DNA of 64,000 nt from Botryllus schlosseri (lineage: Eukaryota): positions 1 through 64,000 of the forward strand of contig CM119372.1 of NCBI GenBank assembly GCA_051294905.1, given 5' to 3'. Shown piece after piece: positions 186-51,613 of the stretch (position 1 is its first letter; each line of letters begins with the position of its first letter). The notes beneath the pieces were generated by a model, which was not told the DNA's origin, did no database searches, and saw only the letters and a list, made by a program, of their open reading frames with translations. Position numbers and translations under genes: made by a program.

Positions 186-3100
186 CCCTAACCCTAACCC
201 TAACCCTAACCCTAACCCTAACCCTAACCCCTAACCCTAACCCTAACCCTAACCCTAACCCTAACCCTAACCCTAACCCCTAACCCTAACCCTAACCCTA
301 CCCTAACCCTAACCCTAACCCTAACCCTAACCCTAACCCTAACCCTAACCCTAACCCTAACCCCTAACCCTAACCCTAACCCTAACCCTAACCCTAACCC
401 TAACCCTAACCCTAACCCTAACCTAACCCTAACCCTAACCCTAACCCTAACCCTAACCCTAACCCTAACCAAGACGCACGGCAACAACCTAACCCTAACC
501 CTAACCCTAACCCTAACCCTAACCCTAACCCTAACCCTAACCCTAACCCTAACCCTAACCCTAACCCTAACCCTAACCCTAACCCTAACCCTAACCCTAA
601 CCCTAACCCTAACCCTAACCCTAACCCTAACCCTAACCCTAACCCTAACCCTAACCCTAACCCTAACCCTAACCCTAACCCTAACCCTAACCCTAACCCT
701 AACCCTAACCCTAACCCTAACCCTAACCCTAACCCTAACCCTAACCCTAACCCTAACCCTAACCCTAACCCTAACCCTAACCCTAACCCTAACCCTAACC
801 CTAACCCTAACCCTAACCCTAACCCTAACCCTAACCCTAACCCTAACCCTAACCCTAACCCTAACCCTAACCCTAACCCTAACCCTAACCCTAACCCTAA
901 CCCTAACCCTAACCCTAACCCTAACCCTAACCCTAACCCTAACCCTAACCCTAACCCTAACCCTAACCCTAACCCTAACCCTAACCCTAACCCTAACCCT
1001 AACCCTAACCCTAACCCTAACCCTAACCCTAACCCTAACCCTAACCCTAACCCTAACCCTAACCCTAACCCTAACCCTAACCCTAACCCTAACCCTAACC
1101 CTAACCCTAACCCTAACCCTAACCCTAACCCTAACCCTAACCCTAACCCTAACCCTAACCCTAACCCTAACCCTAACCCTAACCCTAACCCTAACCCTAA
1201 CCCTAACCCTAACCCTAACCCTAACCCTAACCCTAACCCTAACCCTAACCCTAACCCTAACCCTAACCCTAACCCTAACCCTAACCCTAACCCTAACCCT
1301 AACCCTAACCCTAACCCTAACCCTAACCCTAACCCTAACCCTAACCCTAACCCTAACCCTAACCCTAACCCTAACCCTAACCCTAACCCTAACCCTAACC
1401 CTAACCCTAACCCTAACCCTAACCCTAACCCTAACCCTAACCCTAACCCTAACCCTAACCCTAACCCTAACCCTAACCCTAACCCTAACCCTAACCCTAA
1501 CCCTAACCCTAACCCTAACCCTAACCCTAACCCTAACCCTAACCCTAACCCTAACCCTAACCCTAACCCTAACCCTAACCCTAACCCTAACCCTAACCCT
1601 AACCCTAACCCTAACCCTAACCCTAACCCTAACCCTAACCCTAACCCTAACCCTAACCCTAACCCTAACCCTAACCCTAACCCTAACCCTAACCCTAACC
1701 CTAACCCTAACCCTAACCCTAACCCTAACCCTAACCCTAACCCTAACCCTAACCCTAACCCTAACCCTAACCCTAACCCTAACCCTAACCCTAACCCTAA
1801 CCCTAACCCTAACCCTAACCCTAACCCTAACCCTAACCCTAACCCTAACCCTAACCCTAACCCTAACCCTAACCCTAACCCTAACCCTAACCCTAACCCT
1901 AACCCTAACCCTAACCCTAACCCTAACCCTAACCCTAACCCTAACCCTAACCCTAACCCTAACCCTAACCCTAACCCTAACCCTAACCCTAACCCTAACC
2001 CTAACCCTAACCCTAACCCTAACCCTAACCCTAACCCTAACCCTAACCCTAACCCTAACCCTAACCCTAACCCTAACCCTAACCCTAACCCTAACCCTAA
2101 CCCTAACCCTAACCCTAACCCTAACCCTAACCCTAACCCTAACCCTAACCCTAACCCTAACCCTAACCCTAACCCTAACCCTAACCCTAACCCTAACCCT
2201 AACCCTAACCCTAACCCTAACCCTAACCCTAACCCTAACCCTAACCCTAACCCTAACCCTAACCCTAACCCTAACCCTAACCCTAACCCTAACCCTAACC
2301 CTAACCCTAACCCTAACCCTAACCCTAACCCTAACCCTAACCCTAACCCTAACCCTAACCCTAACCCTAACCCTAACCCTAACCCTAACCCTAACCCTAA
2401 CCCTAACCCTAACCCTAACCCTAACCCTAACCCTAACCCTAACCCTAACCCTAACCCTAACCCTAACCCTAACCCTAACCCTAACCCTAACCCTAACCCT
2501 AACCCTAACCCTAACCCTAACCCTAACCCTAACCCTAACCCTAACCCTAACCCTAACCCTAACCCTAACCCTAACCCTAACCCTAACCCTAACCCTAACC
2601 CTAACCCTAACCCTAACCCTAACCCTAACCCTAACCCTAACCCTAACCCTAACCCTAACCCTAACCCTAACCCTAACCCTAACCCTAACCCTAACCCTAA
2701 CCCTAACCCTAACCCTAACCCTAACCCTAACCCTAACCCTAACCCTAACCCTAACCCTAACCCTAACCCTAACCCTAACCCTAACCCTAACCCTAACCCT
2801 AACCCTAACCCTAACCCTAACCCTAACCCTAACCCTAACCCTAACCCTAACCCTAACCCTAACCCTAACCCTAACCCTAACCCTAACCCTAACCCTAACC
2901 CTAACCCTAACCCTAACCCTAACCCTAACCCTAACCCTAACCCTAACCCTAACCCTAACCCTAACCCTAACCCTAACCCTAACCCTAACCCTAACCCTAA
3001 CCCTAACCCTAACCCTAACCCTAACCCTAACCCTAACCCTAACCCTAACCCTAACCCTAACCCTAACCCTAACCCTAACCCTAACCCTAACCCTAACCCT

Positions 3101-3733
3101 AACCCTAACCCTAACCCTAACCCTAACCCTAACCCTAACCCTAACCCTAACCCTAACCCTAACCCTAACCCTAACCCTAACCCTAACCCTAACCCTAACC
3201 CTAACCCTAACCCTAACCCTAACCCTAACCCTAACCCTAACCCTAACCCTAACCCTAACCCTAACCCTAACCCTAACCCTAACCCTAACCCTAACCCTAA
3301 CCCTAACCCTAACCCTAACCCTAACCCTAACCCTAACCCTAACCCTAACCCTAACCCTAACCCTAACCCTAACCCTAACCCTAACCCTAACCCTAACCCT
3401 AACCCTAACCCTAACCCTAACCCTAACCCTAACCCTAACCCTAACCCTAACCCTAACCCTAACCCTAACCCTAACCCTAACCCTAACCCTAACCCTAACC
3501 CTAACCCTAACCCTAACCCTAACCCTAACCCTAACCCTAACCCTAACCCTAACCCTAACCCTAACCCTAACCCTAACCCTAACCCTAACCCTAACCCTAA
3601 CCCTAACCCTAACCCTAACCCTAACCCTAACCCTAACCCTAACCCTAACCCTAACCCTAACCCTAACCCTAACCCTAACCCTAACCCTAACCCTAACCCT
3701 AACCCTAACCCTAACCCTAACCCTAACCCTAAC
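1..3733 (+). repeat. Telomere, (CCCTAA)n C-strand; left chromosome end
   Basis: Essentially perfect CCCTAA from 488 to 3733; scattered single-base indel variants in 1-470; non-telomeric insert at 471-487. Confidence 0.99.
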
Positions 3734-5070
3734 GTGGCGACTTGTCATGACTCGTGGCGACTTGTCATGACTCGTGGCGACTTGTCATGACTCGTGGCGA
3801 CTTGTCATGACTCGTGGCGACTTGTCATGACTCGTGGCGACTTGTCATGACTCGTGGCGACTCGTGGCGACTTGACTTGACTTGACTTGACTTGACTTGA
3901 CTTGACTTGACTTGACTTGACTTGACTTGACTTGACTTGACTTGACTTGACTTGACTTGACTTGACTTGACTTGACTTGACTTGACTTGACTTGACTTGA
4001 CTTGACTTGACTTGACTCGTGGCTACTTGTCATGACTCGTGGCGACTTGTCATGACTCGTGGCGACTTGTCATAACTCGTGGCGACTTGTCATGACTCGT
4101 GGCGACTTGTCATGACTCGTGGCGACTTGTCATGACTCGTGGCGACTTGTCATGACTCGAGGCGACTTGTCATGACTCGTGGCGACTTGTCATGACTCGT
4201 GGCGACTTGTCATGACTCTTGGCGACTTGTCATGACTCGTGGCGACTTGTCATGACTCGTGGCGACTTGTCATGACTCGTGGCGACTTGTCATGACTCGT
4301 GGCGACTTGTCATGACTCGTGGCGACTTGTCATGACTCGTGGCGACTTGTCATGACTCGTGGCGACTCGTGGCGACTTGACTTGACTTGACTTGACTTGA
4401 CTTGACTTGACTTGACTTGACTTGACTTGACTTGACTTGACTTGACTTGACTTGACTTGACTTGACTTGACTTGACTTGACTCGTGGCTACTTGTCATGA
4501 CTCGTGGCGACTTGTCATGACTCGTGGCGACTTGTCATGACTCGTGGCTTGACTTGACTTGACTTGACTCGTGACTTGACTTGACTTGACTTGTCTTGTG
4601 ATGACTTGACTTGTCTTGACTTGACTTGACTTGACTTGACTTGACTTGACTTGACTTGACTTGTGGTGGGTGGGTATGGGGTATTATGGCGCTCAGCAAC
4701 TAAGGCTTTGTGCGCCAGGTCTGAGTGGGAGGGTTGATTGGGGGTTATATTCCCCTTCCGGTCAATATCACAGTCGAGTCGAGTCGAGTCGAGTCGAGTC
4801 GAGTCGAGTCGAGTCGAGTCGAGTCGAGTCGAGTCGAGTCGAGTCGAGTCGAGTCGACTCGACTCGACTTGACTTGACTTGACTTGACTTGACTTGACTT
4901 GACTTGACTTGACTTGACTTGACTTGACTTGTCTTGTGATGACTTGACTTGTCTTGACTTGACTTGACTTGACTTGACTTGACTTGACTTGACTTGACTT
5001 GTCTTGTGATGACTTGACTTGTCTTGTCATGACTCGTGACTTGTCTTGTCATGACTCGTGGCGACTTGTC
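3734..5070. repeat. Telomere-adjacent compound array: 20-bp unit CTCGTGGCGACTTGTCATGA interleaved with (GACTT)n and (GAGTC)n
   Basis: Directly visible tandem units; unique ~110-bp insert at 4663-4771; (GAGTC)n block at ~4772-4855. Confidence 0.95.
4663..4771 (-). mobile_element. Possible 5'-truncated 3' end of a non-LTR retrotransposon inside the microsatellite
   Basis: Minus strand reads GGCGCACAAAGCCTTAGTTGCTGAGCGCC (GGCGC/GCGCC stem) followed by a C/A-rich tail (CCCATACCCACCCACCAC), resembling I/Nimb/RTE-type 3' ends as I recall them. Confidence 0.4.
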
Positions 5071-20126: not shown

Positions 20127-23100
20127 CTCTTCGCCCACATAATTGGATCAAGCCAGTGTTGCGTGACGCAAATCGAACTGAGCGAACGCATAAGTATCTC
20201 CATTCACTGACAAAACAACATGGAAATTTGGGTCAACTCGGAATCATGACGAATAAGAATAGTTTCCCACTGATCAGAAAGTGTAACTCAATATCGATCA
20301 ACGAGACGGCTTCAATTCTGCAAGCCCCGAAGGGTAAACAAATTAGTTTGATTCATACAAATATCAGAGGATTGCAATCTAATTCCCACCATGATGAGTT
20401 AAAAGACCTTATCGCTGATCTGAAGCTACCTACCCTCGTAGCAATTTCAGAAATAAACTTTTCAACCAAACCCACGCAAAATGTTGATATATCGGGATAC
20501 AACTTCGAGTATACTCCGGCACCGAAGTCAAAGAAACCTTACGGAGGTGTTGGTCTTTACATTGAAGAAAACATTCCATACGAAATTTGCACGGACTACG
20601 ATCTGAATGTCAAAGATTGCGAAGAGTTATGGCTGGAAGTTGATCACCCAATTGGAATTCACAAATCTTTTCTTGTGGCCGTATTATACCGTCATCCCAC
20701 GAAAAACATGAACCAATTCGCAAAAGCGTTGGAGCACTCACTGGACAAAGTCAACAGCGACAAAAAGATGTGTTTCATTGCGGGAGATATCAACATAAAC
20801 CTTCTAAAACACAAAGGCAACGCATACTCCAACGCCATCAAATCCGCCGGTCTTTACCAAATGATCACCGAGCCTACGCGCATAACCGATAAGTCAAGGA
20901 CTTTGATCGACCACATATATACCAACTCGCGCGACATGGAAATCATTCCATTTGTCATTTCGGCAAAAATCAGTGACCACAACCATATTGGTTTTCTATC
21001 ACAAGAACAACAAAGGACGCCCCCTGAAACATATCACCTCTGCAGACGACGAGAGTTAGTGGACGAAGAAGCGCTCGATGATGCCGCATTCAATCAATTT
21101 AAAACATCAGCCATCCCCCACATCTCGATAAACAACTTTGACGATAAATTTGTAGAGTTTATGTCTGCTATCAAATCACTGCTGGAACAATTTGCACCTC
21201 TACAGCGCCTTTCGAGAAGTCAAAGAAAATTGAAGCGAAATCCGTGGATGACCACAAAGCTGATTCAACTTATCCGTAAACGTAACCGGTGGCATAACCG
21301 ATTAGACACCAAGAACTGCCCAGAACATGAACGAGAAAGATTTCGACGTTTCAGGAATCGCACCGTGCATCTCATTTCCAAGGCAAAAGCAAAGTACAAT
21401 GAGAGATTTTTCAACAGACACATAAAGGACACTCGAAAAACATGGTCAGGACTTAACTCTCTCCTACATCGAAAAAAAGGCCATAAGTCTGTTTCGGATA
21501 TTGTGAATTCGGACACCGGAAACAAACTTTCAGACCCGGCGGCCATCGCGAATCACTTCAATGAATATTTTTGTAACGTAGGCCCAAATATTGCTTCTTC
21601 TATTACAAAACCTGTGTCGGCCAGGTCTGAGGTGAGATCGATATCCCAGTCAATTGTGCTTGAACCTACGACCAAATACGAAGTAGAAGTAGCCATCCAC
21701 AAACTGAAATCGCACAAGGCCGACGGCTATGACCAAATCCCATCATGGTTTTTAAAAATGATAAGCATGCATATCAGTCAATATATGGCCCATTTTTTCA
21801 ACTTCATGATAGAAAATGGAGTCTACCCAAGCTATCTAAAAAAAGCCAGAGTAGTCCCTGTACACAAAGCTGGGGATAGAACTAATGTCACCAACTACCG
21901 TCCGATATCCGTTCTCCCATGCATCGGGGTTGTATTCGAAAAGTTGCTCCTCTCCCGCCTGTCCTCATTCCTCGCCAAAATGTCTGTCATTTCCCCTCAA
22001 CAATTTGGCTTCCGAAACAAACACCAAACCGCACATGCCCTCCTAACAGTGGCCGAACAGTATTATGATATCTCAGAGAAGCGAAATGTGGGATGTAGCA
22101 TTTTTCTCGATCTAAAAAAAGCGTTTGACTGCGTAGATCATAAAATTCTCATCTCGAAATTGGCGCGCTACGGACTTCGGGGCCCACAACTTGAGCTCAT
22201 GAAAAGTTACCTCACTGGACGCCAACAAATGGTTGCGATCTCAGACACCTTGTCCTCTCCTCACCTGGTGACCTGTGGTGTGCCCCAAGGCTCAGTACTT
22301 GGACCGGTCCTTTTCACCTTATATGTCAACGACATTTTTGAAACCTCTTCATTGAACACCACACTTTTCGCTGATGATACTCACCTCCTCTCTTCAGCAT
22401 CTTCGACGGCAGAGCTGGATGCCCTGACTGGTGACCAAATGCCCAAAGTCCATGAGTGGACGGCCCAGAACAACCTCTGCATAAACGCCTCGAAATCGCA
22501 ATTGCTGACAGTAAATTCAAAAAATAACCTAACCGTTAATATCGCTGGTCAGCCCGTTTCCAACACAGATAATGCCAAATATCTCGGGGTTTTACTGGAC
22601 TCGAACATGTCCTGGAAGAGTCATATTCAGTCCCTAGAAATTAAATTATCACCGAAGTGCGGCCTGTTCTACAGCCTTAGGCGCTTCATGCCAGCATGGG
22701 TTCTTCTGATACTCTTTAAATCCTTAATCCAATCGAAGTTACACTATGGCATCCTCTGTTGGGGGGCTGCCAGTAAAACTGCACTCAAGCCACTGCAAAA
22801 ACTACAACATAAAGTACTCCGAATCATAGCTAGGGCCCCAAAGGGGCCTGGCCGCCCATCCAACAAGTCGCTGCTGAAGAGATTCGGCGTCCTAAACATA
22901 GAAGATATGCGGAAACTAGAAATCGCCAAGTTTATGTATCAGTTCCACTGCGGTCGTTGCCCCGAATATTTCAATGACTTCTTTACCTCGGAATCAAAAG
23001 CGCACAAGTACAACACACGCGCGTCCACGTCGTCCAAATATCATATGATCGACCGAAAAGATCATCGCTCTATCAAATATGCCGGACCTGATGTGTGGAA

Positions 23101-23454
23101 CAGTATCCCGCCGGCCATCCGACAGTCGACGAGCATGTCCACATTCAAGTCGAAATACAAGCAATTACTACTAAATAAATACAGTCCATCCTCAAGATTA
23201 CCGGACCACGACTGACCTATCGATCTCGCTTCCCATGACATGCCGCCCTATTTATTGTCGCTTTCTTTTTCTATACTATCTTCTTTACTTTCATTCAGTG
23301 TGCATGCCTCCTCTTTATATCGCCTAGGCCAAGGTAGGTGTCAGATTCCATAGACTGCTCCTTGTCGCTTCGACACCTTCCTGTCTTTTCATTGTATCGC
23401 ATTTTTTGTGGTGTATTGAACTGATAAAATTGCTAATAAACCAATGATGATGAT
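20127..23454 (+). mobile_element. CR1/L2-group LINE with intact ORF2, 3' UTR, AATAAA and (TGA)n tail
   Basis: AATAAA at 23435-23440 then ATGATGATGAT; 3' end confirmed by sister copies near 41537 and 60391; 5' limit inferred from CTCTTCGCCCACAT, also present at 40787. Confidence 0.9.
20246..23215 (+). CDS. LINE ORF2: AP endonuclease + reverse transcriptase (989 aa from first ATG; frame open from 20156)
   Basis: Endonuclease motifs NIRGL, GGVGLY, YRHP, GDININL, PTRIT..LIDH, SDH; RT motifs NYRPIS, QFGFR, DLKKAFD, GVPQGSVLGP, FADD, KYLG; no stops. Confidence 0.97.
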   Translation: MTNKNSFPLIRKCNSISINETASILQAPKGKQISLIHTNIRGLQSNSHHDELKDLIADLKLPTLVAISEINFSTKPTQNVDISGYNFEYTPAPKSKKPYGGVGLYIEENIPYEICTDYDLNVKDCEELWLEVDHPIGIHKSFLVAVLYRHPTKNMNQFAKALEHSLDKVNSDKKMCFIAGDININLLKHKGNAYSNAIKSAGLYQMITEPTRITDKSRTLIDHIYTNSRDMEIIPFVISAKISDHNHIGFLSQEQQRTPPETYHLCRRRELVDEEALDDAAFNQFKTSAIPHISINNFDDKFVEFMSAIKSLLEQFAPLQRLSRSQRKLKRNPWMTTKLIQLIRKRNRWHNRLDTKNCPEHERERFRRFRNRTVHLISKAKAKYNERFFNRHIKDTRKTWSGLNSLLHRKKGHKSVSDIVNSDTGNKLSDPAAIANHFNEYFCNVGPNIASSITKPVSARSEVRSISQSIVLEPTTKYEVEVAIHKLKSHKADGYDQIPSWFLKMISMHISQYMAHFFNFMIENGVYPSYLKKARVVPVHKAGDRTNVTNYRPISVLPCIGVVFEKLLLSRLSSFLAKMSVISPQQFGFRNKHQTAHALLTVAEQYYDISEKRNVGCSIFLDLKKAFDCVDHKILISKLARYGLRGPQLELMKSYLTGRQQMVAISDTLSSPHLVTCGVPQGSVLGPVLFTLYVNDIFETSSLNTTLFADDTHLLSSASSTAELDALTGDQMPKVHEWTAQNNLCINASKSQLLTVNSKNNLTVNIAGQPVSNTDNAKYLGVLLDSNMSWKSHIQSLEIKLSPKCGLFYSLRRFMPAWVLLILFKSLIQSKLHYGILCWGAASKTALKPLQKLQHKVLRIIARAPKGPGRPSNKSLLKRFGVLNIEDMRKLEIAKFMYQFHCGRCPEYFNDFFTSESKAHKYNTRASTSSKYHMIDRKDHRSIKYAGPDVWNSIPPAIRQSTSMSTFKSKYKQLLLNKYSPSSRLPDHD

Positions 23455-36849: not shown

Positions 36850-38027
36850 ATTGTACAAACTACCAATGCAGTTTTTTCAGGGTCAACTAACTACTGATTT
36901 TTTAATAGTTCTACTCGTAGTTGCGCACTTTGAAAATCTTGTAGCCAGGGCATGTGTTTTGGAGTCGAAATCCCACCCCTTTCCGCCGATCTGTTCCGAT
37001 TTCGATACATTAAAAATAAATGAGATGCTTCGGGGGTGAAGTGTGTTGGATCGGTTCTAGTTGGGGAATTTCGGATTTTAAAATGTCATTCGTTCTAGTT
37101 GTTGTTCTAGTTTTATATCCGGTAGTTTGTACAAGTGTATGCTCTGCCCTCTAAATATGATGGGTCTCAGATTAAAGTGGAGTGTGTGAAAAACATTTTG
37201 CAGCAGCCACTTTTCTTAGAAGACGTGATTGAACTGCTATACTAAACAATAGATGACTAACGTAATGGTTAGTGCTGTTCATAAATGAAAAGTGTTTTCA
37301 AAATTGGTAGGTCAACTACAAAATACACTGCACAGGCACCCCTTTTGGCTCAATTACAACCCACAGAACAGGGGCGGGCAACAAGACGGGATTTTGAGAT
37401 GCCCGACGCCTGTGAGTCTATAGTCTATACTAAGGGCTTCTACATGCGGCCAGAGTTCAAAGAACTTGTTGAAAACTTTGCTTCACCACAGATGACTCAT
37501 TCACTTCTACAGCTATTGAAGTACATTACATTAATAAATTCATTCAATACTGTTTTTGGTCTCCATGCTTAAACTTGAAGTTTACATTAAATATGATTTA
37601 TTCCTTGTATAGCCGGAGAAATCCGTGAATAATGTATAGATTCAGGAATCCGGCACGCCAAATACTTCATTTTTCCAAATCTGACCCGCCTACCGGAGAA
37701 GTTGCGCGCCCCTGCTGTAGAGGCATTTATAAAAGAAAATAGTTTTGGATTTATTTGATCAAAATGCACAAGAAAAAAGTCATCAAACCTGATCTTAAAC
37801 GAAAGCTACTATTGCACTAATAGAAAATTTTCTCCGGTCATGGCACTGTAAACGCCCTCAAAGTCATGAAACGGGCGCTGCACTGTTGCTGGTTGCAGGG
37901 AATGAATTTCGGTAAGTAGCGAGTATTACAGACATCAAGGACAAGAATATATTATGTCATCTCTCCAGTTTTGACCAGAAAACCACCTGAACTACTACAA
38001 GTAGGCTATTTATTCATGACTGACCAC

Positions 38028-39644
38028 TAGGGTTGTCCAAAATTTGGGAAATCTTGAAAAGTCTCCGTGATTGTGTCTCATTCTATTGATTATTGATAAA
38101 AAACAACAATTAGCCTGAAAGAAGCCTACAGAAATGCCGTTAAGATTTCGGTCAAAGCGTTTGAAAGTAGCTGCTCAAGAATGGGCGTGCCACCGACCAT
38201 AGAACGACGAGAAGACTAGTAATCAAACAACAACGGCTCTTGATTGGCTAATCGTCTATGCTTCAATGATCACGCCAGCAGCAGCTTGCTGATTAGGTGT
38301 TCAAGAAGTCTGCTACCGGCGGGCATTCTGAGTGCGCATTGTTAGTATTTTGGCAGGTGGTGATTTAAAATTGATTCAGGACATGTTGAGTTACGAAATA
38401 CATGATGAACAAACAACACCTGCTTCACAGAAGCTTTTACAGCATGACTGCTTTAGTGTGAAGGAAACGGCTGAAGCCTACATGCCGTGTTTTCATCGAG
38501 ATAAAGCAAAGGCGCTTATGCAAGTGTTGAGCGAATTCACCGTTTCAGTACGCATCCATCATCAGTGAATACAAATATATATAGCTTAACAATGACACTA
38601 TACTTTGTGTGATCTTATTGGGCTGAAGCTGTAGTATATAGGTGACGTTTTGAATGCTCTAGGGATTGGCGGAATCAGCCGGTTATGCTTGGCACTTATC
38701 AGATGCTTACAGCAAATTGAATGCACTTGCAGGCGTTGTTTAAGTCATTACTGAAAACGCAGAAAAGAGGTGGTAATGTACGCAAACTCGTACAGGCTAT
38801 GCTGGATATGGCATCTCAAAGTCCTTATTGATCCCGCTGAGAAGAGGTGAGAAGAAGAGCACAGACTATGCTGCTATAGTATCCAGCATAGTTTGGATAT
38901 CGTATCCAGCATAGCCTGTGCTTACCTTACACCTCTTTTCTGCAGCATCAGTAAGGACTTTGACAACTCTTATAAGTGAATTCAATTTGCTGTAAGTATA
39001 ACTGCCGAGCATAACCGGCCCTAGAACCTTCAGAACTTAAACTATATACTACAACTTGGGTCCAATAAGATCACACAAATTAGTCAAGCTTTATATTTGT
39101 ATTCACTGATGATGGATCCCTTCTTAAACGGGGAATTCGTTCACCACTTGCATAAGCACCTTTGCTTTTCCTCGTAAAAAACACGGCATGTAGGCTATAG
39201 CCGCTTCCTTCACAATAAAGCAGTCATGCTGTAAAAGGTTTTGTGAAGCAGATGTTGTTTGTTCATCATGTATTTCGGAACTCAACATGTCCTGAATTAA
39301 TATGAAATCATCACCTGCCAAAATACTAACAATGCGGACTCAGAATCCACGCCGGTAACAGACTTCTTGAACACCTAATCAGCAAGCTGCTGCATGCCGT
39401 GATCATTGAAGCATAGCCGATTAGCCAATCAATAGCCGTGGTTGTTTGATTATTAGTCTTCTCGCCGTTCTATGGTCGGTGACACGCCCATTCTTGAGCA
39501 GCTACTTTCAAACGTTTTGACCGAAATCTTAATGGGATTTCTGTAAGCTTCTTTCAGGCTAATTGTTGTTTTTTATCAATAACCTATAGAATGAGACACA
39601 ATCACGGAGACTTTTTAAGATTTTCCAAATTTTGGACAACCCTA
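38028..39644. mobile_element. Palindromic hAT-type element (1617 bp, ~750-780 bp inverted arms)
   Basis: TAGGGTTGTCCAAAA / TTTTGGACAACCCTA; perfect TSD CTGACCAC; ORFs 38332(+) and 39321(-) are mirror copies. Confidence 0.92.
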
Positions 39645-41336
39645 CTGACCACCACTGCAAACCATGGTGATTCAGTTACGGTTAGCATGTGTCAGTTGTT
39701 TTGTGAAACTTCTAGGGTCGCCGTATGTCAGCCGTATAGCGAAATTCTTAGCTATAAAAGTGCCACAACACAGAAATTCAAAATACGAATTTGTTGCGTG
39801 ACATTGAAATGCAGTTTATTATTATGTGGTGATGCGGTGTGTCTCCACTCTACCTGGGCTGCAAGGTGTTTGAAATCAGGCTGATATGACGTCAAAGCAG
39901 GACTCAGCAGTTCCTTTTCAAGTGCTAATGAACATGTAAGGAAGATTTCTGCTCGGTAATCTTATCAGAAGCGTAGGGATTCATATTATCAAGTCGGAGC
40001 GCTCAAAATCGCATTTTATATTAAGTAATTAGTGATGATGTGTAGAATTTTGATATTAATAATATTATCCGGAGAATATAGCCTTGTATAGACATCATAG
40101 TTTTCGCATTTATGTTTAATCTGAATAGGAATTTAAATACATAGTCCTAAATACACATAATAGAAAATCTGTCGATTCTAGCCAAGGTAAGTTTTGACGC
40201 GGCAATCATAAGTCGTAAAATGTGGAAACTGCAGAAACCGTAACTTGTACACATAAAATCAAGTTTAAAACATGGACGGATGATATTAGTCCTAAATACA
40301 CATAATACAATATCTGAGAAAAGTATCAAGATGCGGCAATCAATGCAGCGATGATATAGCAATGGATGGATGATGTGGCACTATAGGCGTGGCGCTTGAT
40401 GATGTGGCACAGATGACGTAGCAGATGAATGTACCCTTAGGGCATGAAAATGGGCGTGGCAATTAGGATGACGTGGCGCTCTCTGATTGGTCTGCGCCAA
40501 ACCCAGCTCATCCTACTACTATGACCTCACACTAGCAAAGCTTCGTCTATCGACTAGAGGTGGTCACGATCCGATTCAGGAGTATATGGTTGTTTGATAT
40601 AAGTTTGTAACCAGGGCCACATTTTTTCAGCCCCTTCCCGCGAAAACAAACACTGGTCTAGGGCCCACCGTGGGGTAATCGATGCAGCTTCTGGTGGCTT
40701 ACTATATGAATCTGGTCCTTAATTGATTTCAATGAATTATGTCAATAATATTGGTTCTTCCATATATTACTATATAATTTGATCCTCTCTTCGCCCACAT
40801 GATCAGAGTTAGCGGTAGAGCTGGTGGAGGATTATGACTTCGAAAATGCAAGAGCGTAATTGTACATCGTTAAGTCATGTTCGTCGCACCTTTAAGATTA
40901 TATATCAGCTTAATGCCTGTGCGCACTGCACCAGTGAGCTATATGAACAACGCACATCCGTTGGTTTCCAACCTTTTATGGTTTAACATCTTCGCGAACC
41001 CTAGAATAAAGGCAAACTACTCCCAGGTTTAGAACCAATATCTTTGAAAAAATCATCCAAACGGCCGAAACCGACTTTATGAATATACCGTTATCTAGTC
41101 ATTGTGATTACAATTAGACTTATTTCTGTAGATGAATTTTATTTTTATTATTTTTCGATCGCAGTTTTTGCGAGTGCGGTAGTCCCCATATTAAACCAAC
41201 ATATATGATACTAAATCGCGCGCAGGGCGAAGAAAAATTTCATGTAGCATAAATCTGCCCCAAAATAATATTGTTTATGTCGATTTAAGATAAAATATTG
41301 AGCATACTTCAAAATTCCGGACATTTAGGCATATTT

Positions 41337-42523
41337 TAGTCTATGGAATCGAACACCCACCTTGGCCTAAGGCGATGTAAAGACGATGCATCTACACTGA
41401 ATGAATAGTCAAGAAGATAATATAGAAAAAAGCAAGCGACAAGAAATGGTGTGGCATGTCATGGCAGGCGAGATCGATAGGTCAGGTCGTGGTCCAGTGA
41501 TCTTGCGGATGGACTATAGTATTTATTTAGTAGTAGTCATCATCATCATCATCATCATCATTGGTTTATTAGCAATTTTATCAGTTCAATACACCACAAA
41601 AATGCGATACAATGAACAGACAGGAAGATGTCGAAGCGACAAGGAGTAGTCTATGGAATCTGACACCCACCTTGGCCTAGGCGATGTAAAGAGGAGGCAT
41701 GCACACTGAATGAAAGTAAAGAAGATAGTACAGAAAAAGAATGCGACAAGAAATAGGGCGGCATGTCATGGGAAGCGAGATCGATAGGTCGGTCGTGGTC
41801 CGGTAATCTTGAGGATGGACTGTAGTTGCCTGTATTTCGACTTGAATGTGGACATGCTCGTCGACTGTCGGATGGCCGGCGGGATACTGTCCCACAAATC
41901 AGAACCGGCATATTTGATAGAGTAGACGCTGAAAAATGTTGTCAGTTAGACCAATGATATAGGCCAACAAATGGTTGCAATCTCAAACACCTTGTCCTCT
42001 CCTCACCTGGTGACCTGTGGTGTACCTAGAGGCTCAGTACTTGAACCGGTCCTCTTCACCTAATATGTCAACGACATTTATGAAACCTCCTCATTGAACA
42101 CCACACTGTTCGCTGATGATACTCACCTCCTCTCTTCCGCATCTTCGACTGCAGAGATAAATGCCCTGACTAGTGACCAAATGCTCAAAGTGCATGAGTG
42201 GACGCCTCAAAATTCGGTGTCTTAAACATAGAAGATATGCGGATGCTAGAAATCGCCAAGTTTATGTATCATTTCCACTGCGGTCATCGCCCGAATATTT
42301 CAATGACTTTTTTAACTCAGAATCAAAAGCGCACAAGTACAGCGCACGCGCATCCCCGTCGTCCAAATATCATATGATCGACAAAAAAGATCATCGCTCT
42401 ATCAAATATGCCGAACCTGATGCGTGGAACAGTATCCCGTCGGCCATCCGACAGTCGACAGACGAGCACGTCCACATTCAGTCGAAATACAAGAAATTAC
42501 TGCTAAATGAATACTAGTTCATC
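41337..42523. mobile_element. Cluster of fragments of the same LINE family as 20127-23454
   Basis: ~41337-41536 (-, diverged 3' UTR), ~41537-41922 (-, 3' end with (TGA)n tail), ~41965-42204 and ~42209-42523 (+, RT pieces with stop and deletion). Confidence 0.9.
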
Positions 42524-43703
42524 ATTTTTGAGATTTTGTCCTCGAGAATTTTGGTTAGAAATAGGGCCAAAGTTGGGCTGGAAAGTTGATCATTTTTTAG
42601 TCAATCACCTGATTTTGTGAAAGAAAAACTGTATTTTGGCGCTGAGCGACAAAGTTGACTTTATTTTTTACTCAACCGACCACGAATTAGGAAAAATTTA
42701 CCATTTTTGCAGGATTTTCCTCCGGTTTTGCAACTTTGAAAATTTTGAAAAGTGTCCTCTTTTCAGATTTCCAAAATATGGTTACCCTATAGCGAAGGAG
42801 CATATGCCGCGGTCCATGGCTTTCGCTGAAAATGCCGCCCGAAGTTTCAATCTTTTCCACTATATTGACTGAAAATCTTGTTGTGTTTACTAAAATAAGT
42901 AAAAGGTCATCACTACTCACTTCGTCTCGACACCGGCATTATACTCAACTTTTCAAGTGCCAAGTGGCTTCTACGCCACCGAGGGTTTATGACCGTTCTT
43001 CGTATATACACGGCCGTCAGTAGCTGCACAAGTGCACATCTCTTGACGATAATAATTTGTTTATCTGAACTGTCTACGTCTAAGTATATAGTACCATAAG
43101 CAGGGCCGTAACAGCACTTCGTCAGCCCCCTACCCCAAAAAAACGTTGGTTTTGGGCCCCCCTAAGGGTGGTAAATCGGACTTATGGGGGGCTGCGCCCC
43201 CTCAGACCCCCCTCCGACCATGCGCTATTTACATTGGGTATACGCTGTTTCTTCATTGGGTGTCCGTTTAGTGAGTCTGCTTTGCTTGCCTAATCGCGCA
43301 AAGCACGAAAAATTTGTACAATTCATGACTTAATCGGTCAATATGACGCTGTTTATACATTGGGTGTCCGTTTAGTGAGTCAGCTTTGCCTGCTTAATCG
43401 CGCGAAGCGCGAGAAATTTCTATAATTCATGACCGAATTGGTCAATATGATCGGTATTGCTTATATATTGCTAGCAATTTTTATCCTCTCTCTGTGTGGT
43501 GTTAGTAATCATTGTTGATGTAATCATTACGCTGCCTTATATTGCACCCGCTGTCGTGGGTATGGCCATTCCTTATTTGCCGAGTTGCTGTTAGTTGTAC
43601 GTCTCGCTAATATTAAAGTAGTATTGGACTCGACGTTCTGCGTTCCTGGTCATTGGATATTGGGTCTAAGTCAGGACAGTCTACTTTAATATTTTCTTGA
43701 AGC

Positions 43704-45347
43704 ATGGCCGAAAGACTGAGCTCGCCAGATCGATTGAGCATCGATCCAGAGGATTCCAGGGCACCAACATTGTTTCGCCACTGGAAGCGACAGCTCACTG
43801 AACATTTCACGGAGCTCGAGGAGCGTCGGAAGGAGAATGACCCTCAAGTGAACAAGCTCAGAGTTTTGATCCGTGCCGTGAGCTCCGAAGTCTACGGTTA
43901 CATTGCCGATGCTACAACGTTCGACGCCGCCATGAAGTCGCTTGGGGAAAGGTTCGAGAAGACTATCAACACTGTCTATGCAAGACACCTGTTGGTGAGT
44001 CGGCATAGGAAAAGTGGGGAATCGATCGCGGCGTTTCATCAGACGCTCGTGGAACTCGCTCGCAACTGCGAGTTCACTGCGGTTTCTGCGGCAGAGCACC
44101 GAAATGAAGCCCTGCGCGATGCATTCGTGAATGGGCTGAATATACCGTTCATACAGCAGCGCCTGTTGGAGAAGAGTGATCTGAAGATTGATTCGGCGCT
44201 AGAATTAGCACAGACCTTGGATCAAGCTGCAAAGTATTCGGCTGATGTGTCTGCTAATAGTAATCTAGCGATGGCGAGAAATCCTGATTACTCGAGTTCT
44301 ACCTTCACGGAGTCGCAATCGTCACGAAGCCCTTCTGGTCGAGATTCTGATGGCGATAAAGTCGCTGCAGTTCGTAGAAGAAAACATCAGAAGCGGAAGA
44401 AAAAGAAATGTCGGTATTGCGGGGAACGCAAGCACGACGGTAAAGGCTGCCCTGCGTACAAGGCTCGTTGTCATAACTGCGGGCGTAAAGGACATTACGC
44501 AAAAGTGTGCGAGTCAAAGCCGCAGACGGAGTCGCCTACGTCGGCAGCTGTTCATGCCTCTGCCGACTTGCAGCGTCGCGCTGTTCTAGCGGGCGCCCCG
44601 ACGTGCCTAGGTAAGGCTGTCGTACCCATCTATTTGAGGAGGAGAAAGTTGAAATCCCTGTTCGACACCGGAGCTGCTATTAACTTCATTGACGCGCGGC
44701 GAGCGCGGAAGTTGGGGCTGAGGTGGAGAGGCGGATCATCGTCGGCTGATCTTGCGGTAAAGAACACATCTGCAGAAATCTTGGGTTTCGTGTGGACAGA
44801 TTTCACTTGTTGCGGTCGGCGCTACCGAAGCATAAAGTTCGCCGTTATGAAGGACCTTTGTGCTGATGTTATCATCGGACATACGTTCATGGAGAAACAT
44901 CGCTCAATAATATTTCCGATGGGAGGGGATCTTCCACCACTGAATGTAAAGGAGTTGGCAGACGCCGGCGAAAAGTGTCTTGGTGATGATAATCGGGCGA
45001 AATCTGTTGCCACCACAGACCCTACTGTGTCTGTTGCAGCTGCCAACGGTCTGGAAGAACCGAGATTATTTGAATTCATGACTCCGGATTGTCGCCCTAT
45101 TGCTACGCGCTCACGAAACGACAGCGAGGATGACAAGTCGTTTATTGACGCGGAGATCAAGAGGATGCTCGAATCGGGTACAATTGAACATAGTCGTTCG
45201 CCTTGGAGAGCCCAACTTGTTGTAGTAAAGAGTAACCGTAAAAAGAGGTTGGCTGTGGACTACTCTACAACGGTAAATCGTTTCACGTGCCCAGATGCGT
45301 ATCCGTTACCTCGTATCGAAGATCTCGTTAACAAAGTTGCCCTAGAC
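43704..45347 (+). CDS. Gypsy gag-pol 5' part: Gag with two Cys/His knuckles, aspartic protease, RT N-terminus
   Basis: CRYCGERKHDGKGC, CHNCGRKGHYAKVC, LFDTGA, SPWRAQ, RLAVDY, DAYPLPRI; frame runs into an insertion after KVALD. Confidence 0.95.
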
Positions 45348-45478
45348 CAGTGGTTCCCAACCGGTGGGGAATTCCCCACTGGTGGGGAATTCAATGGTTT
45401 CTGGTGGGGAATAGACGCATTTGTTCAAAATTATATACAGGACAGTCTACATATTCACGGAGACACATACGTAATTAC

Positions 45479-46357
45479 TAGGGCAATTTTTTTTTGACCT
45501 AAAAAACGGAAGATTTTGACCTAAAAAATCTAAATTTTGACCTTTTTTGACCTAAAAAAACTGAAATTTGACCAAATTTTGACCTCACATATGCAAATTA
45601 GGTATTTTCGCATATAATGTTAAAATTGTACCACTTATCTTCATTTCTGGTTGGAGCTGTCTGTCCTTACAAAGTAGATTGGCCTGAAAAAACGTTTTTG
45701 GCTCAAAAACTTACAGATTTTTACATGAAAAACTAGTATTTTAACGAAATCTGGCCCTATGAAGAATTCCATTAGTTACATTACGTATTCTGGTGGAAAT
45801 AATTAAAATTTCTTGTAGTACAACGAAAGATCCTTTCCTACATTCTCGGGTAGAAAGAGTCTGTCCTTACTACGTAGCTTGCCAAGAACGGAGAAAGAAC
45901 GTTCAACAGCAGCATTTGCTGGATGACAACACTCAAGTTGTGTGCACACTGCTGGTGACAAACCGCGTTGCTTCATTCTGACAATGTTGTCTATATCACA
46001 ATTTTTCAGCTTGCGCTTCTTGATATAAGATCCATGCAATGTCCAAGCAGTCTTGCTTCAGCTAGGATATTGCGGTGCGTTGACCATAAAACAATGTCAC
46101 TATTTGTTTCATTTGACCATTTATGATTCACAATGAGCAGACGATGGTCCGTTTACAACGGTAGGCCTATAAAGTAGGCTACAAGCTGTAAAATATCAAA
46201 TGATAAGTTCACCGACAGCGCAAAATCTACGATACAAACGAAATGCTGAGGTCAAAAAATGTTTGACTTTGTAAACAATTTTGACAAATTTTGACCTAAC
46301 GCTACAATTTTGACCTAATTTTGACTTTTTTTGACATGTCAAAAAAAAATTGCCCTA
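45479..46357 (-). mobile_element. Second copy of the TAGGGCAATTTT hAT-derived element
   Basis: Perfect TSD GTAATTAC; reverse complement of 25725-26625 with few differences. Confidence 0.93.
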
Positions 46358-46648
46358 GTAATTACCGTTACCAGTTAACTGCTCTGGAATGTATGTATCG
46401 AAAATTATATTGCGTGTTGTTCACAATAGGCCCACCTCATTTTTAACTCTGGATGGCCGATGATGGCGTCACAAACGCATCCAGCACGACTAGTTTGACC
46501 TGAAATAACGCTTTCTCGAAATTTTGAGGTTCACTGGTATCAGTTCACAATACGTTTTATGTTGCAGTTATAGGCGATTGTCTTGCGTACTCGTGTGGTT
46601 GTGTGTCTTGTGTAGTCTGTGATGACAAAAGTGTTGGGTAGTGGGGAA

Positions 46649-47660
46649 CAGGACCGTAACTGCCGCACCCCAAACCCCCCAAGTGGGGGGAGGGGCGAGC
46701 TCGAAGGGGCCCAAAATTATTTCGTGAATTAAAATAAATTACAGAGTATCTTTTGGAAATTTATGTCACTTTTTCAAAATATTTTTGCGCTGGGGGCGCG
46801 ATTAATGTTGCCGAATATCTTGATTATTGGGTACCCGTCCCCCACGAAAATACGTAGAAGTTATTGAAATGGAGACTTCGTCGTCGGCCGTTACTGGGCC
46901 TCGATGCACCAAGACATATGAAGTTATAGGCCATGTACCATACGACTCTGAGAAGTGTGCCAGCACGATCAGCAGCGAGAAGAGCATGACCGAGAAGGAA
47001 TGCCCTTATGGTGACAGAATAGAATACTTCGATATATATACAATACACGTATACGCTTAATTGTCTATAGGCGGCTAAAAGGCTGGCGCCAAATGTTCCA
47101 GTCTTGGCGATCTGAACCCCAGAGGACCAATTATTTGCCAGTAAAGCAATACCAATTCGAAATCGTGTGTGCCTTTTAGTGTTGGCGATTTCCATATCTT
47201 TTGAAATAGCAGATATATATAGGAGGTCACAAAAGAGCATAATGTAACGAAGTCAATATACCAACGGGTCCGTCCGAAGATGTTTAATACTTATTTAGGG
47301 GCCTTACCTTTTCCAACACACCTCACTTAGCTCTACCGGTAAATCTGATTACGTGAGCAGAGAGTTGATAAAAAATCGATAGCAAAATATAGGCTATGCA
47401 ATTCCCGATCATATTGACCGATTCAAACATGAATTATATAATTTTTTCGCGCTTCGAGCGTTTAGTCGGAATAAGGCGACGCTCGAAACCGTAGACCCAA
47501 TGTAGCTGATAAGTAACGGGTGGAAAGCGTACAGGCTCAGGGGGCTGAGGGGGTTCTATGGGGCATCGGTCCCAGAAGTTGTGTTTATAACCCTGTGAGG
47601 GGCCCAAGACCAACGTTTTTTTTGGGGGGGGGTGACTGACGAAGTGCTATTACGGTCCAG
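46649..47660. mobile_element. Diverged relative of the CAGGGCCGTAAC family, nested in the Charlie MITE
   Basis: CAGGACCGTAAC / ATTACGGTCCAG (mismatched TIRs); TSD GTGGGGAA; internal sequence is inverted and homologous to ~50400-51160. Confidence 0.85.
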
Positions 47661-47734
47661 GTGGGGAATGAAGGCTCGGAATAAATCTGAAGTGGGGAAT
47701 GAAGACAAAAAGGTTGGGAACCACTGCCCTAGAC

Positions 47735-49882
47735 AAATGGTATAGCAGCATCGATCTGAAAGAGGCATACCACCAGCTGAAAATTCGTGATGACGAAAAG
47801 ATTTACACTGCATTTGAAGCCAACGGGAAACTCTATCAGTTCCGGCGCGTTCCTTTTGGAGTAACCAATGGCGTGGCAGCGTTTCAGCGGGTGATGGATA
47901 AATTCATCGAGAATAATAACTTGAAGAAAGTCTACGCATATCTGGATGACTTGACAGTTACTGGGGCGACGAGAGACGAACACGATGAGAACTTACGAAA
48001 ATTGCTAGATGCAGCGGCCGAGATAGGACTGCATATCAACGAAGAGAAAAGTAAGTTTGCTCAAACTAGTTTGAATATCCTTGGTTACGAGCTCTCTCGT
48101 GGAAAAGTAAGTCCTGATCGAGAGCGAATGAAACCTTTGATCGAGATGAAAGAACCGACAACACCAAAAGAGTTAGCAAGAATCAAAGGTTTGTTTGCTT
48201 ACTATGCTCGCTGGATACCTGATTTCTCTACTCGTATCCGACCCTTAAACGTGAGTGAGCTGCCTCTGGATTCAGAGGCTATCAAGGCTTTCATGAGATT
48301 GAAGGATGATCTCGCTAAAGCTAGTCTTTGTGCAATCCGCGATGATTTGCCGTTTCAGGTTGAAACCGATGCATCGGATGTGGGCATAGCCGGCGTTTTG
48401 GCGCAGGGTGGTCGCCCTGTTGCATTCATGGCGAGAACACTAAGCAGACACGAGCGGAACTACCCTGCAATCGAAAAAGAAGCTCTAGCTATTATCGAAG
48501 CGATCCGGAAATGGGAACACTTCTTGAAGGGTCGTCACTTCACATTAACTACTGATCAGAAGTCCGTATCGTTCATTTTTGACAAGAGAAACCGAGGGAA
48601 GATCAAGAATACGAAACTTACAGCGTGGCGGTTGGAACTTGGACAGATGTATTACGATATATGTCACAGACCAGGTAGGCTGAACATTGTTCCTGATGCA
48701 TTGTCTAGACATGTCGCAGCGAGCATCCCAACGACTATGCAACTCCAAGAAATTCATGACGCTCTAGGTCATCCTGGCATGGCTCGACTGGTTCATTTTG
48801 TTCGAAATAGAAACCTTCCTTACACCACCGAGGAAGTCAAGGCTATATGTAGAAACTGCAGGGTCTGTGCAGAACTGAAGCCAAGGTTCTTCAAAAGAAA
48901 TCCTATTCCATTGGTAAAGGCGTCGAAACCCTGGGAACGGCTGTCCATGGATTTTAAAGGCCCAGTAAAAGGTCAGTTTCCTCATGTTCTTATAGTAGTT
49001 GATGAATATAGCAGATTCCCGTTTGCCTTCCCGTGTAAAACGACAACGTCGGAGGCTGTAATTGAATGCCTTGAGGATCTCTTCAGTTTATTTGGGTTTC
49101 CAGAATTTGTTCACAGCGATCGGGGATCGTGTTTCACCAGTAAAGAAATGAAGCAATTCCTGGCTGAAAGAGGCATTGCATTCAGTAACTCGACGCCGTA
49201 TCATCCACAAGGCAACAGCCAATGCGAACGCATAAATCAGACTGTATGGAGAACTGTCAAATTACTCCTGCGTTCTCGAAACTTGCCTGAAAACAAGTGG
49301 ACTGATGTTTTGAGTCAAGCATTGCATTCCGTTAGATCTCTTTTGTGTACATCGACTAACGCGACGCCGCACGAGCGGTTTTTCTCTTTCAGCAGACGCT
49401 CTATGTGTGGGGAAAGCTTGCCGGAGTGGCTATCGTTTGGACGACCGGCACTTCTGCGACGATTCGTGAGGAGGAAAGGAGACCCTCTCGTCGACGAAGT
49501 GACCATACTGGAAGCGAACAAAACCTATGCCAAAATACGCCTACCAAACGGTAACGAAGGAACTGTATCTACTTCTGATCTTGCCCCATGTCCAACAGGT
49601 GCAGACTTGGAGCATGGTTCCAGAGTGCAGAATGACGATGGTGAAAGAAGGGAGATGACGAAACTTGACGGTACAGCATTGGCTGACGCAGATGACGATC
49701 CTGTTAGCGATGAACCCGAAAGCCTGCGTCGCGAACATCAAGGACCGAATTCGCCATCAAATGACGGAGCCGCCGAAAGGGACGAGACCGTTCGATCTGA
49801 AACTCCGACGCTACGGAGATCATCAAGAATCCGAAAGGCTCCCGATCGCTATGGCCAATCCGTTTCTATAATGCACTTGTAA
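47735..49882 (+). CDS. Gypsy pol 3' part: RT, RNase H, integrase
   Basis: IDLKEAYHQ, VPFGVTN, YLDD, ETDAS, EKEAL, TDQ; HxxxxHPG..CxxC; MDF, HSDRG, GNSQCER. Removing the insertion and one TSD restores a single 1263-aa ORF. Confidence 0.96.
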   Translation, partial: KWYSSIDLKEAYHQLKIRDDEKIYTAFEANGKLYQFRRVPFGVTNGVAAFQRVMDKFIENNNLKKVYAYLDDLTVTGATRDEHDENLRKLLDAAAEIGLHINEEKSKFAQTSLNILGYELSRGKVSPDRERMKPLIEMKEPTTPKELARIKGLFAYYARWIPDFSTRIRPLNVSELPLDSEAIKAFMRLKDDLAKASLCAIRDDLPFQVETDASDVGIAGVLAQGGRPVAFMARTLSRHERNYPAIEKEALAIIEAIRKWEHFLKGRHFTLTTDQKSVSFIFDKRNRGKIKNTKLTAWRLELGQMYYDICHRPGRLNIVPDALSRHVAASIPTTMQLQEIHDALGHPGMARLVHFVRNRNLPYTTEEVKAICRNCRVCAELKPRFFKRNPIPLVKASKPWERLSMDFKGPVKGQFPHVLIVVDEYSRFPFAFPCKTTTSEAVIECLEDLFSLFGFPEFVHSDRGSCFTSKEMKQFLAERGIAFSNSTPYHPQGNSQCERINQTVWRTVKLLLRSRNLPENKWTDVLSQALHSVRSLLCTSTNATPHERFFSFSRRSMCGESLPEWLSFGRPALLRRFVRRKGDPLVDEVTILEANKTYAKIRLPNGNEGTVSTSDLAPCPTGADLEHGSRVQNDDGERREMTKLDGTALADADDDPVSDEPESLRREHQGPNSPSNDGAAERDETVRSETPTLRRSSRIRKAPDRYGQSVSIMHL

Positions 49883-51613
49883 CGATATTCATTTCGTATT
49901 GTATATTATTTTGGCGGGGGAGAATGTGGTGTTAGTAATCATTGTTGATGTAATCATTACGCTGCCTTATATTGCACCCGCTGTCGTGGGTATGGCCATT
50001 CCTTATTTGCCGAGTTGCTGTTAGTTGTACGTCTCGCTAATATTAAAGTAGTATTGGACTCGACGTTCTGCGTTCCTGGTCATTGGATATTGGGTCTAAG
50101 TCAGGACACTCTGCTTCCGTAATCTGATTTACCGGTAGAGCTAAGTAAGGTGTGCTTGAAAAGGTAGGACCCCTCAATAATAATTGAACATCTCCGGGTG
50201 TATACTCGTTGTCAGGAACGAAACAGCACTTCGTCAGGCCCCCAAAAAACTACTTGGGCTCCCATAGGGTGATGAACCGACCCCTTCCCAATCACGTCGT
50301 TCGCTTTTGCCACGAAATTACAGTTGTACTGTTCAGTTAGCCAGAGCCAAGCGCGAAGATTTCTGATAATTCACGATAAAATCGGCCAATAAGATCGGGA
50401 ATTGCATATATATTATGCTATCAATTTCTTGTCCTCTCTACTCACGTAATTAGATTTACCGGTAGAGCTGAGTGAGGTGTCTTTGAAACTGTAGAGCCCG
50501 TAAATAATAATTAAACATCTTCTGACGGGCGGACTCGCTGGTATGACTTCGTTACATGATGTTATTTTGTGACCTGCTGTCTGCTATATCAAAAAATATA
50601 GGATCGCCCAAACGTACTAAACTAATCGATCACACGATTTTAAATTGGTATTTCTTCACTGGCATCTAATTTTTCTTTGCGGGATGGTATTTGTCTTGTG
50701 AGGTTCAGATTACTAAGACAGGAACATTCGGCGCCAGTCATTTAGGCGCCTATGGACAAATAAACCTATATGTATTTCGTATATATAACGTAGTTTTCGG
50801 TCACCATAAGGGCAGTCCTTTTCGGCCAAGGTTTCTCGCTGTCGATCGTTCTGGCACACTTCTTGGAGTCGCGTGTTGGATGGCCTAAAACTATATATGT
50901 CTTGGTGCGTCGTGGCGCGGTAATGGTCAACGCCGATATGCCCATTTCTATAAATCTTACGTATTTTTCCTTGGGGGAAGAGTACCCAATTATCAAAACA
51001 TTTGGCAACTTGAAATCGCACGCATCGCGAAAAAGTTGCGTAAAGTTTCAAAAAAATATTTTATAATTTATGCTAATTCACCAAAAAATTTGGGGCCCCC
51101 TTTCGAGCTCGCCCCCCCCCCCCCAAATGGGGGGTTTGGGGTGCGGCAGTTACGGCCCTGACCGTAAGCAGTTACCTTTCTCTGAACATTAATTATGCGG
51201 TATAGCGACTGCCTAGCCAATTCACGAACATACCTATAACCAGGGCATGTTATGGTATGGTATGGTATGGAGGTATGGTATGGTATGGATCGATATTTTG
51301 GTATGGAATATGGAACAATGCAAGTATGGTATGGAATGGAAGATTTTAATCTATGGTATGGAACGGCATTTCCATACTTCCATACTTAGGTGTTTCATAC
51401 ATTTTATCGTGATCTGTGCAAGCTTCATGAAGCGTACGTTGATCGCTGTTCACGGAATACGATCGCTTTTGTTATGTGTGAACGTGAACTATTGAATGCT
51501 GTGTAGGAACAAATACACGATTGTGCAACGGTTTTAGGAGCACTTGGAATGACATGATTTTGTGACGTAATAATGACAACAGTAATGTTGATCCGATATT
51601 CTATTGAGTCTAG

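Follow-up and report, generated by a model that had tools for sequence, protein, structure and literature searches.

Complementarity between the primer-site position and the LTR of a Botryllus schlosseri Ty3/Gypsy element suggests likely self-priming in a chromodomain-less animal clade

Self-priming of reverse transcription has so far been shown in the fission-yeast retrotransposon Tf1 and predicted for chromovirus relatives and some plant Copia lineages. In Tf1, according to the available parts of three reports (PMC7175516, PMC4600332, PMC5341516), the first 11 nucleotides (nt) of the RNA anneal to the primer site, and the RNase H cut falls between bases 11 and 12; this duplex sits in a three-duplex "pretzel" with two duplexes next to the PBS (primer-binding site), as described in the available sections of PMC10085805. 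Here we describe a Ty3/Gypsy element of Botryllus schlosseri that lies in a 64,000-nt stretch of DNA (assembly GCA_051294905.1, contig CM119372.1, positions 1 to 64,000 of the forward strand; "the window"). On its sequence and by analogy with Tf1, the element probably primes reverse transcription with its own RNA, through pairing with its long terminal repeat (LTR), and not with a tRNA.

As in Tf1 and Tf2 of Schizosaccharomyces pombe, Tj1 and the Tf1/sushi group, no tRNA site is present and the sequence after the LTR pairs with a stretch of the LTR. The 11-nt primer of the available Tf1 accounts has a counterpart in an 11-nt core shared by most relatives of the window element, and extra helices, predicted ones in the window element and its relatives, adjoin the duplex in both cases. 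The clade to which the window element belongs differs from Tf1/sushi in its missing chromodomain (0/11 proteins), its Gag with two CCHC knuckles, its LTR length (about 160-255 bp) and its leader length (a few tens of bases). A chromodomain at the integrase C-terminus is usual but not universal in Tf1/sushi. The candidate primer of the clade carries the poly(A) signal, unlike that of Tf1, and most relatives have a local RCCT...AGGY hairpin as the neighbour helix, unlike the two PBS-adjacent duplexes of the pretzel as far as the available description of it goes.

Self-priming has already been proposed in other lineages and hosts than here and, with Copia, outside Tf1/sushi: the available part of PMC6317226 predicts it for the plant chromovirus Tcn1 and for the Copia elements TAR, Houba and Osr-1, by the criterion of an LTR complement of at least 10 nt starting 0-5 nt past the LTR. 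Bivalve TRIMs and fungal GalEa also have no tRNA site and carry internal hairpins instead, according to the accessible portion of PMC6934838.

The primer-site position of the window element

The element is a complete, young LTR retrotransposon (Table 1). Its LTRs (43495-43678 and 49925-50108; 184 bp) show no difference, and Ty3/Gypsy hallmarks are present: TG...CA LTRs, a target duplication, a polypurine tract and the order Gag, protease, reverse transcriptase (RT), RNase H, integrase. These domains lie in a single reading frame from the Gag ATG at 43704 to 49882, interrupted by a 2,379-bp insertion (45348-47726) that splits RT in the window copy. Ty3 Gag-Pol was the top solved-structure match of the protein. 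A first-pass annotation, made from the letters of the window, had recorded a missing chromodomain, two Gag knuckles and the C-terminus RRSSRIRKAPDRY. All three hold. Pfam chromo gave no match at E 0.1 in the C-terminal 227 amino acids of the window protein or in 10 full-length relatives, and the Gag profile matched solved structures at the zinc knuckles and nowhere else, which does not inform on the clade.

Past the terminal CA of the 5' LTR the sequence reads GT and then CTACTTTAATATT (43681-43693), the exact reverse complement, over 13 nt, of AATATTAAAGTAG (43609-43621). This complementarity and the lack of a TGG-type PBS before the Gag ATG had both been claimed in the first-pass annotation and are borne out. 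The first TGG 3' of the 5' LTR is at +27 (counted from the LTR end), and no tRNA-type site precedes Gag. By the measure used for the plant elements, the window element has 13 nt of self-complement beginning at +3. In 3000 dinucleotide shuffles of the LTR, complements starting at +1 to +6 reached at most 11 nt (once) and never 12. The site lies 2 nt from the terminal CA, which is the primer-site distance and the same as that of the AA at the end of the polypurine tract. ARAGORN reported no tRNA gene, neither for the window nor for the loci of the relatives.

When 43609-43696 is folded, z is -3.99 and none of 200 shuffles is as good; 12 of the 13 duplex pairs have probabilities of 0.92-1.0 across the five folding windows, irrespective of which 5' end was chosen. 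Two helices are predicted beside it: ATTG/CAGT, beyond a one-base bulge (0.94-0.97), and TCCTG/CAGGA (about 0.57). Of PBS-adjacent helices, one (ATTG/CAGT) is predicted on the LTR side and none is stable on the other. A second stem proposed earlier, TTGGACTC/GGGTCTAA, is possible on paper (8 bp, 2 of them G-U), yet its pairing probability is 0.00 in all five windows; the ensemble prefers ATTG/CAGT, and we reject the second stem.

A family contig that spans both arms (X1 record 5) has 2 differences over 214 nt, and the duplex geometry is therefore the family's form and not peculiar to the window copy. In a diverged family contig (X1 record 4, 43559-43653), other letters stand at 43610 and 43612 in the LTR arm, with the primer site outside its view.

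Pairing and changed letters among the relatives

Relatives were recovered with a profile built from 50 homologous polyproteins, which yielded 80 metagenome loci and 6 loci on contigs of metagenome-assembled genomes (MAGs); scans of viral contigs found none. They are about 45-62% identical to the window element in Pol. Usable were 34/86 loci, with a Gag start and some upstream sequence or a collapsed LTR-leader junction, the other 52 having no 5' end. A CA, one base and a TTTA-like start is seen in 32/34, which collapse to 22 families. Close kin of kept rows were left out (L006, L007, L008, L009, L013, L017, L023, L029, L030, L070); L029 has one mismatch in its site, and L008/L070 and L009 belong to the L072 family as mutated copies. 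Two more loci were kept out of the family count: L019, with a TGG site and just 14 nt of LTR, and L036, in which no LTR was recognised. The LTR end was fixed (i) by both LTRs and the 5-bp duplication in L006, L008, L012, L070 and L084, (ii) by the end of the LTR pair in L004, L011, L033, L057 and L066 and (iii) by the CA-N-TTT motif itself in the remaining relatives, which is partly circular and counts against our interpretation. The MAG loci (L081-L086) are animal retrotransposon contigs inside bacterial records, likely host contamination.

The site pairs over at least 10 nt with the family's own LTR in 20/22 families (21/23 with the window element; mean 13.4). When the site of one family was set against the LTR of another, at least 10 nt paired in 24/506 combinations (mean 5.7). 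The summed self score was 308 against a maximum of 198 in 100,000 permutations; because the families are related, the draws are not independent and this is no strict probability, which weakens the test. The covariation between post-LTR site and LTR that the first-pass annotation had put forward as a check was thus found, with compensatory changes.

The 3' arm begins at +2 (+3 in L028 and the window element; L003 at +2 with one G-U), and this start register stays fixed while the loop from arm to LTR end varies between 23 and 60 nt. Duplex length ranges from 10 to 19 nt, and in most relatives the arm is an 11-mer from (A/T)G(T/C) to TAAA. At +7 to +10 and at +12, two to four different Watson-Crick pair types occur among the families. 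Across +2 to +12, Watson-Crick pairs fill 236/242 cells, with 1 G-U and 5 mismatches, the pattern to be expected from recopying of the primer into its site under the standard scheme of LTR replication.

A hairpin, RCCT...AGGY, begins at the first base past the arm in 17/22 families (7-12/22 at shifted starts). It holds 11 G-U in 68 pairs, in contrast to the near-pure Watson-Crick arm; one helix thus looks copied and the other selected as RNA structure, although the comparison helix was picked with G-U allowed, which tells against the contrast. Starting exactly at the predicted cut, the hairpin is a candidate cleavage determinant. Both G-U and compensatory pairs are seen in it (first 15-40 nt past the arm; e.g. 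L004:2102-2115, L072, L010, L081). Two other features stand near the arms. In L010, L019, L021, L028, L083 and L085, a splice-acceptor-like pyrimidine tract ending in YAG lies 5-30 nt 5' of the arm; it may act as a U-rich enhancer of polyadenylation or as a site of splicing or trans-splicing. In L016 (2150-2330), the leader right past the 18-nt duplex directly repeats about 17 nt of U3.

A self-priming model, its poly(A) site and its rivals

The poly(A) site of the family comes from a single-cell RNA run (X24, about 3% read) with 76 matching reads, all of 3'-end type. Sense reads cover the LTR to 43644 and none goes past it, and 20 reads enter the LTR from sequence resembling the region before the 3' LTR. 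Three reads end behind 43631 in AG and a run of A. Most family contigs have AG at 43632-43633, and no A-rich DNA follows there; family transcripts are therefore polyadenylated 16 nt past ATTAAA, on the thin evidence of three reads, which need not derive from the window copy. No pile-up of 5' ends was seen in the RNA runs, the reads of X24 being 3'-end reads. With the tail after 43633, the LTR arm falls within the transcribed end repeat (R) and leaves room for strand transfer.

From the observed anatomy, complementarity, conservation with changed letters and family poly(A) site, the following course can be proposed. Transcription would start at or near 43609, and the first ~13 nt of the RNA would fold onto 43681-43693. 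By analogy with Tf1, the element's RT/RNase H would cut the RNA after 43621; the new 3' end would be extended through GT and U5, and the 12 nt of R that remain 3' of the cut, up to the poly(A) site (43622-43633), would serve the first strand transfer. Plus-strand synthesis would copy the primer back into the primer site, and the arms would stay exactly complementary while their letters drift. The predicted R, about 25 nt long, would consist of 13 nt of primer plus the 12 nt left for strand transfer, and a U5 of 45 nt would follow. The self-priming already suggested in the first-pass annotation is favoured by the fixed register, the compensatory change across 22 families, the cross-pairing control and the near-pure Watson-Crick pairing.

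Several further points weigh against this interpretation. We infer the start site, cleavage, priming and recopying, and 12 nt of R is short for strand transfer. The wider segment 43575-43710 folds at only z -1.03. The duplexes of L011 and L057 are broken (8 and 7 nt); both copies are old, their LTRs being 94-95% identical, and carry one or two mismatches within a longer duplex. L036 does not show the signature. L019, inside the clade, reads CA-A-TGGTCCTCC before Gag (L019:9-25; soil), with a TGG in place of the TTTA-like start; we take this site to resemble tRNA-Tyr, and it may mark a switch between self- and tRNA-priming within the clade. The window element itself departs from its relatives: its TTTAA stands at +7 and not at the clade's +2, it lacks the distal G-C pair present in 21/22 relatives, and no RCCT...AGGY hairpin follows its arm.

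These departures can be read against a FastTree phylogeny of RT-RNase H-integrase, which covered the clade members and, as outgroup, four other Gypsy open reading frames (ORFs) of 27-29% identity taken from the flanks. In it, a subclade with support 1.0 unites the window element with a Ciona intestinalis protein, L022, L066 and L076. Since these three loci all have the common +2 register, the window element is a derived, register-shifted variant. Its LTR arm continues past TAAA through GTAG, and its spacer is GT as in L028. Alternatively, the cut could fall after TAAA as in the relatives, with GTAG/CTAC serving as an accessory helix. The cDNA end would then carry 6 extra bases, and the unbroken Watson-Crick run from +3 disfavours this reading.

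It is unlikely that the main role of the duplex is to hide the 5'-LTR poly(A) signal and thereby let full-length RNA be made, with something else, such as a tRNA fragment or other cellular RNA, as the primer. The first-pass annotation had raised such occlusion and had named ATTAAA as the only poly(A)-like hexamer in the LTR, which stands after 13 hexamer variants were tested. The tail 16 nt after ATTAAA in the three reads means that the duplex covers a used signal, and folding predicts that every base of ATTAAA is paired in the 5' context. Since the 3' arm is not part of the LTR, the pairing is confined to the 5' end, and AATAAA or ATTAAA occurs at the arm's 3' end in 13/22 families. In the 3' LTR, on the other hand, ATTAAA is also predicted to be partly paired, in a local hairpin (unpaired 0, 0.01, 0.05, 0.25, 1, 1). 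While 20 families keep the duplex, 9/22 have no canonical hexamer at the arm and 4/22 have one further downstream, outside the duplex. Occlusion requires neither the +2/+3 start nor pure Watson-Crick pairing, and alone it would leave the element without a primer site. As an at most secondary role within the self-priming reading, occlusion is partly supported: cover of the 5' signal follows from the geometry of the duplex and is likely a side benefit, outside the conserved core.

Quite unlikely, too, is priming in trans by short RNAs from the element's own R, which host machinery would cut close to the poly(A) site and trim back to the edge of the duplex, with no cut in cis by RT/RNase H. The overlap of primer and poly(A) signal in most families and the variable duplex length (10-19 nt) would suit it. 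The mapped poly(A) cut at 43633, however, lies 12 nt from the required 3' end at 43621; trimming would stop out of register, because the helix is predicted to run past the bulge into the LTR-terminal CA, and a trans primer would lose to the cis duplex.

We regard as very unlikely that a tRNA half or another cellular small RNA is the primer and the LTR arm a captured copy or structural partner. Half-tRNA priming is known in Copia lineages (PMC6317226, available part), and the relatives share a loose consensus ATTTAnnnnRCT in addition to the TGG site of L019. The site varies by family and tracks the family's own LTR, however, the window site is unlike the others, and Rfam gives no match in 43400-43900 at E 1. 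A chance inverted repeat would be compatible with the AT-rich arm and the weak z of the wider segment (-1.03), but its probability is negligible, being refuted by the LTR shuffles (0/3000 reach 12 nt) and by the 20/22 families that keep the pairing with changed letters. We thus retain self-priming as the preferred reading.

Features of the window and significance for the clade

The coordinates of the element are collected in Table 1. Its host site is a high-copy repeat (43440-43494, 50109-50200), of which empty-site reads and contigs are abundant; the left LTR boundary is independently confirmed because empty flanking-repeat reads and contigs break off at 43494. The insertion in RT is a non-coding DNA transposon, which we take to be hAT-like, with CAGTGGTTCCCAAC ends and a mosaic of repeats that are also found at 43100-43460 and 50100-51170.

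Table 1. Coordinates of the Ty3/Gypsy element and its candidate priming features in the window
Feature	Position	Strand	Remark
Left target-site duplication CTCTG	43490-43494	+	Same 5 bp on right side
5' LTR, 184 bp, TG...CA	43495-43678	+	Identical to 3' LTR
Candidate self-primer, predicted 5' end of R, AATATTAAAGTAG	43609-43621	+	Exact complement of 43681-43693
Poly(A) signal ATTAAA within candidate primer	43612-43617	+	Sole hexamer variant in LTR; tail 16 nt 3' in three reads
R/U5 boundary, where family transcripts receive poly(A)	43632-43634	+	Used in 3' LTR, equivalent 50062-50064
2-nt spacer GT, LTR end to primer site	43679-43680	+	Counterpart AA 49923-49924, polypurine tract to 3' LTR
Primer-binding-site position CTACTTTAATATT, without tRNA-type TGG	43681-43693	+	Complement of 43609-43621
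gag (two CCHC knuckles), protease, start of RT	43704-45347	+	
DNA-transposon insertion in RT, terminal inverted repeats	45348-47726	.	8-bp duplication CCCTAGAC at 45340-45347 and 47727-47734
Remainder of RT, RNase H, integrase, no chromodomain	47735-49882	+	
Polypurine tract GGCGGGGGAG	49913-49922	+	
3' LTR	49925-50108	+	
Right target-site duplication CTCTG	50109-50113	+	

Elsewhere, a long TTAGGG array (224-3748) makes the window appear to lie at a chromosome end; together with the Ciona matches given below, these repeats point to a likely invertebrate animal host. An intact-looking endonuclease-RT ORF of 1019 amino acids at 20156-23215 belongs to a non-LTR retrotransposon, CR1/L2-like by eye, and a fragment of the same kind lies at 42173-42517. 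A long imperfect inverted repeat at 38025-39647, with arms of about 750 bp, is likely a foldback element.

Named relatives of the clade come from a tunicate, a coral, a crustacean, a nematode and a spider, and Ciona intestinalis supplies the nearest named proteins (61% over RT-RNase H-integrase), one of which may be Cigr-1. Two CCHC knuckles without a chromodomain, which we take to be Mag-type, are found here and are not unique to Mag. The clade is likened to the Cigr-1/Mag lineage through these Ciona proteins and not through Cigr-1 or Mag sequences. Its place outside Tf1/sushi is partly supported, by the absent chromodomain and the Gag type, the tree having been built without Tf1/sushi references. 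Supplement 1 of PMC6238403 lists Cigr-1, the Ciona reference element, with "Mag", and the available literature reports the Cigr-1 clade also in molluscs and annelids. In the parts covered, the clade surveys (PMC6238403, PMC8556966, PMC3670739, PMC3601003) give names and no primer data; the main text of those listing the Cigr-1 clade, as far as available, does not mention the PBS, and the accessible supplements of PMC6238403 hold no protein motifs for placing the clade. In the open literature we found no account of self-priming in a chromodomain-less animal Gypsy clade; closed papers or database entries may hold one.

Tf1-like self-priming in a chromodomain-less animal clade is the likely reading of these sequences. 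Beyond it, we lean towards the hypothesis that this compact Gypsy clade evolved self-priming independently of Tf1/sushi. The primer would be the first 11-19 nt of R, usually with the poly(A) signal, and one duplex would both prime and shield the 5' signal. A recopied pair could change its letters and slide, by 4-5 nt across the signal in the window element, and L019 may represent a switch between self- and tRNA-priming. To this the window adds a poly(A) site mapped within the short R that is predicted, the comparison of a helix that looks copied with one that looks selected, and a clade member whose register is shifted. The start, the cut (43621/22) and the poly(A) site (43633) are predicted to the base, with an R of about 25 nt, and the mechanism is thus directly testable. 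If true, a second, widespread animal Gypsy clade would make self-priming a recurrent solution. It would account for the failure of primer-site searches on such elements, which may be freed from both tRNA supply and silencing by tRNA fragments.
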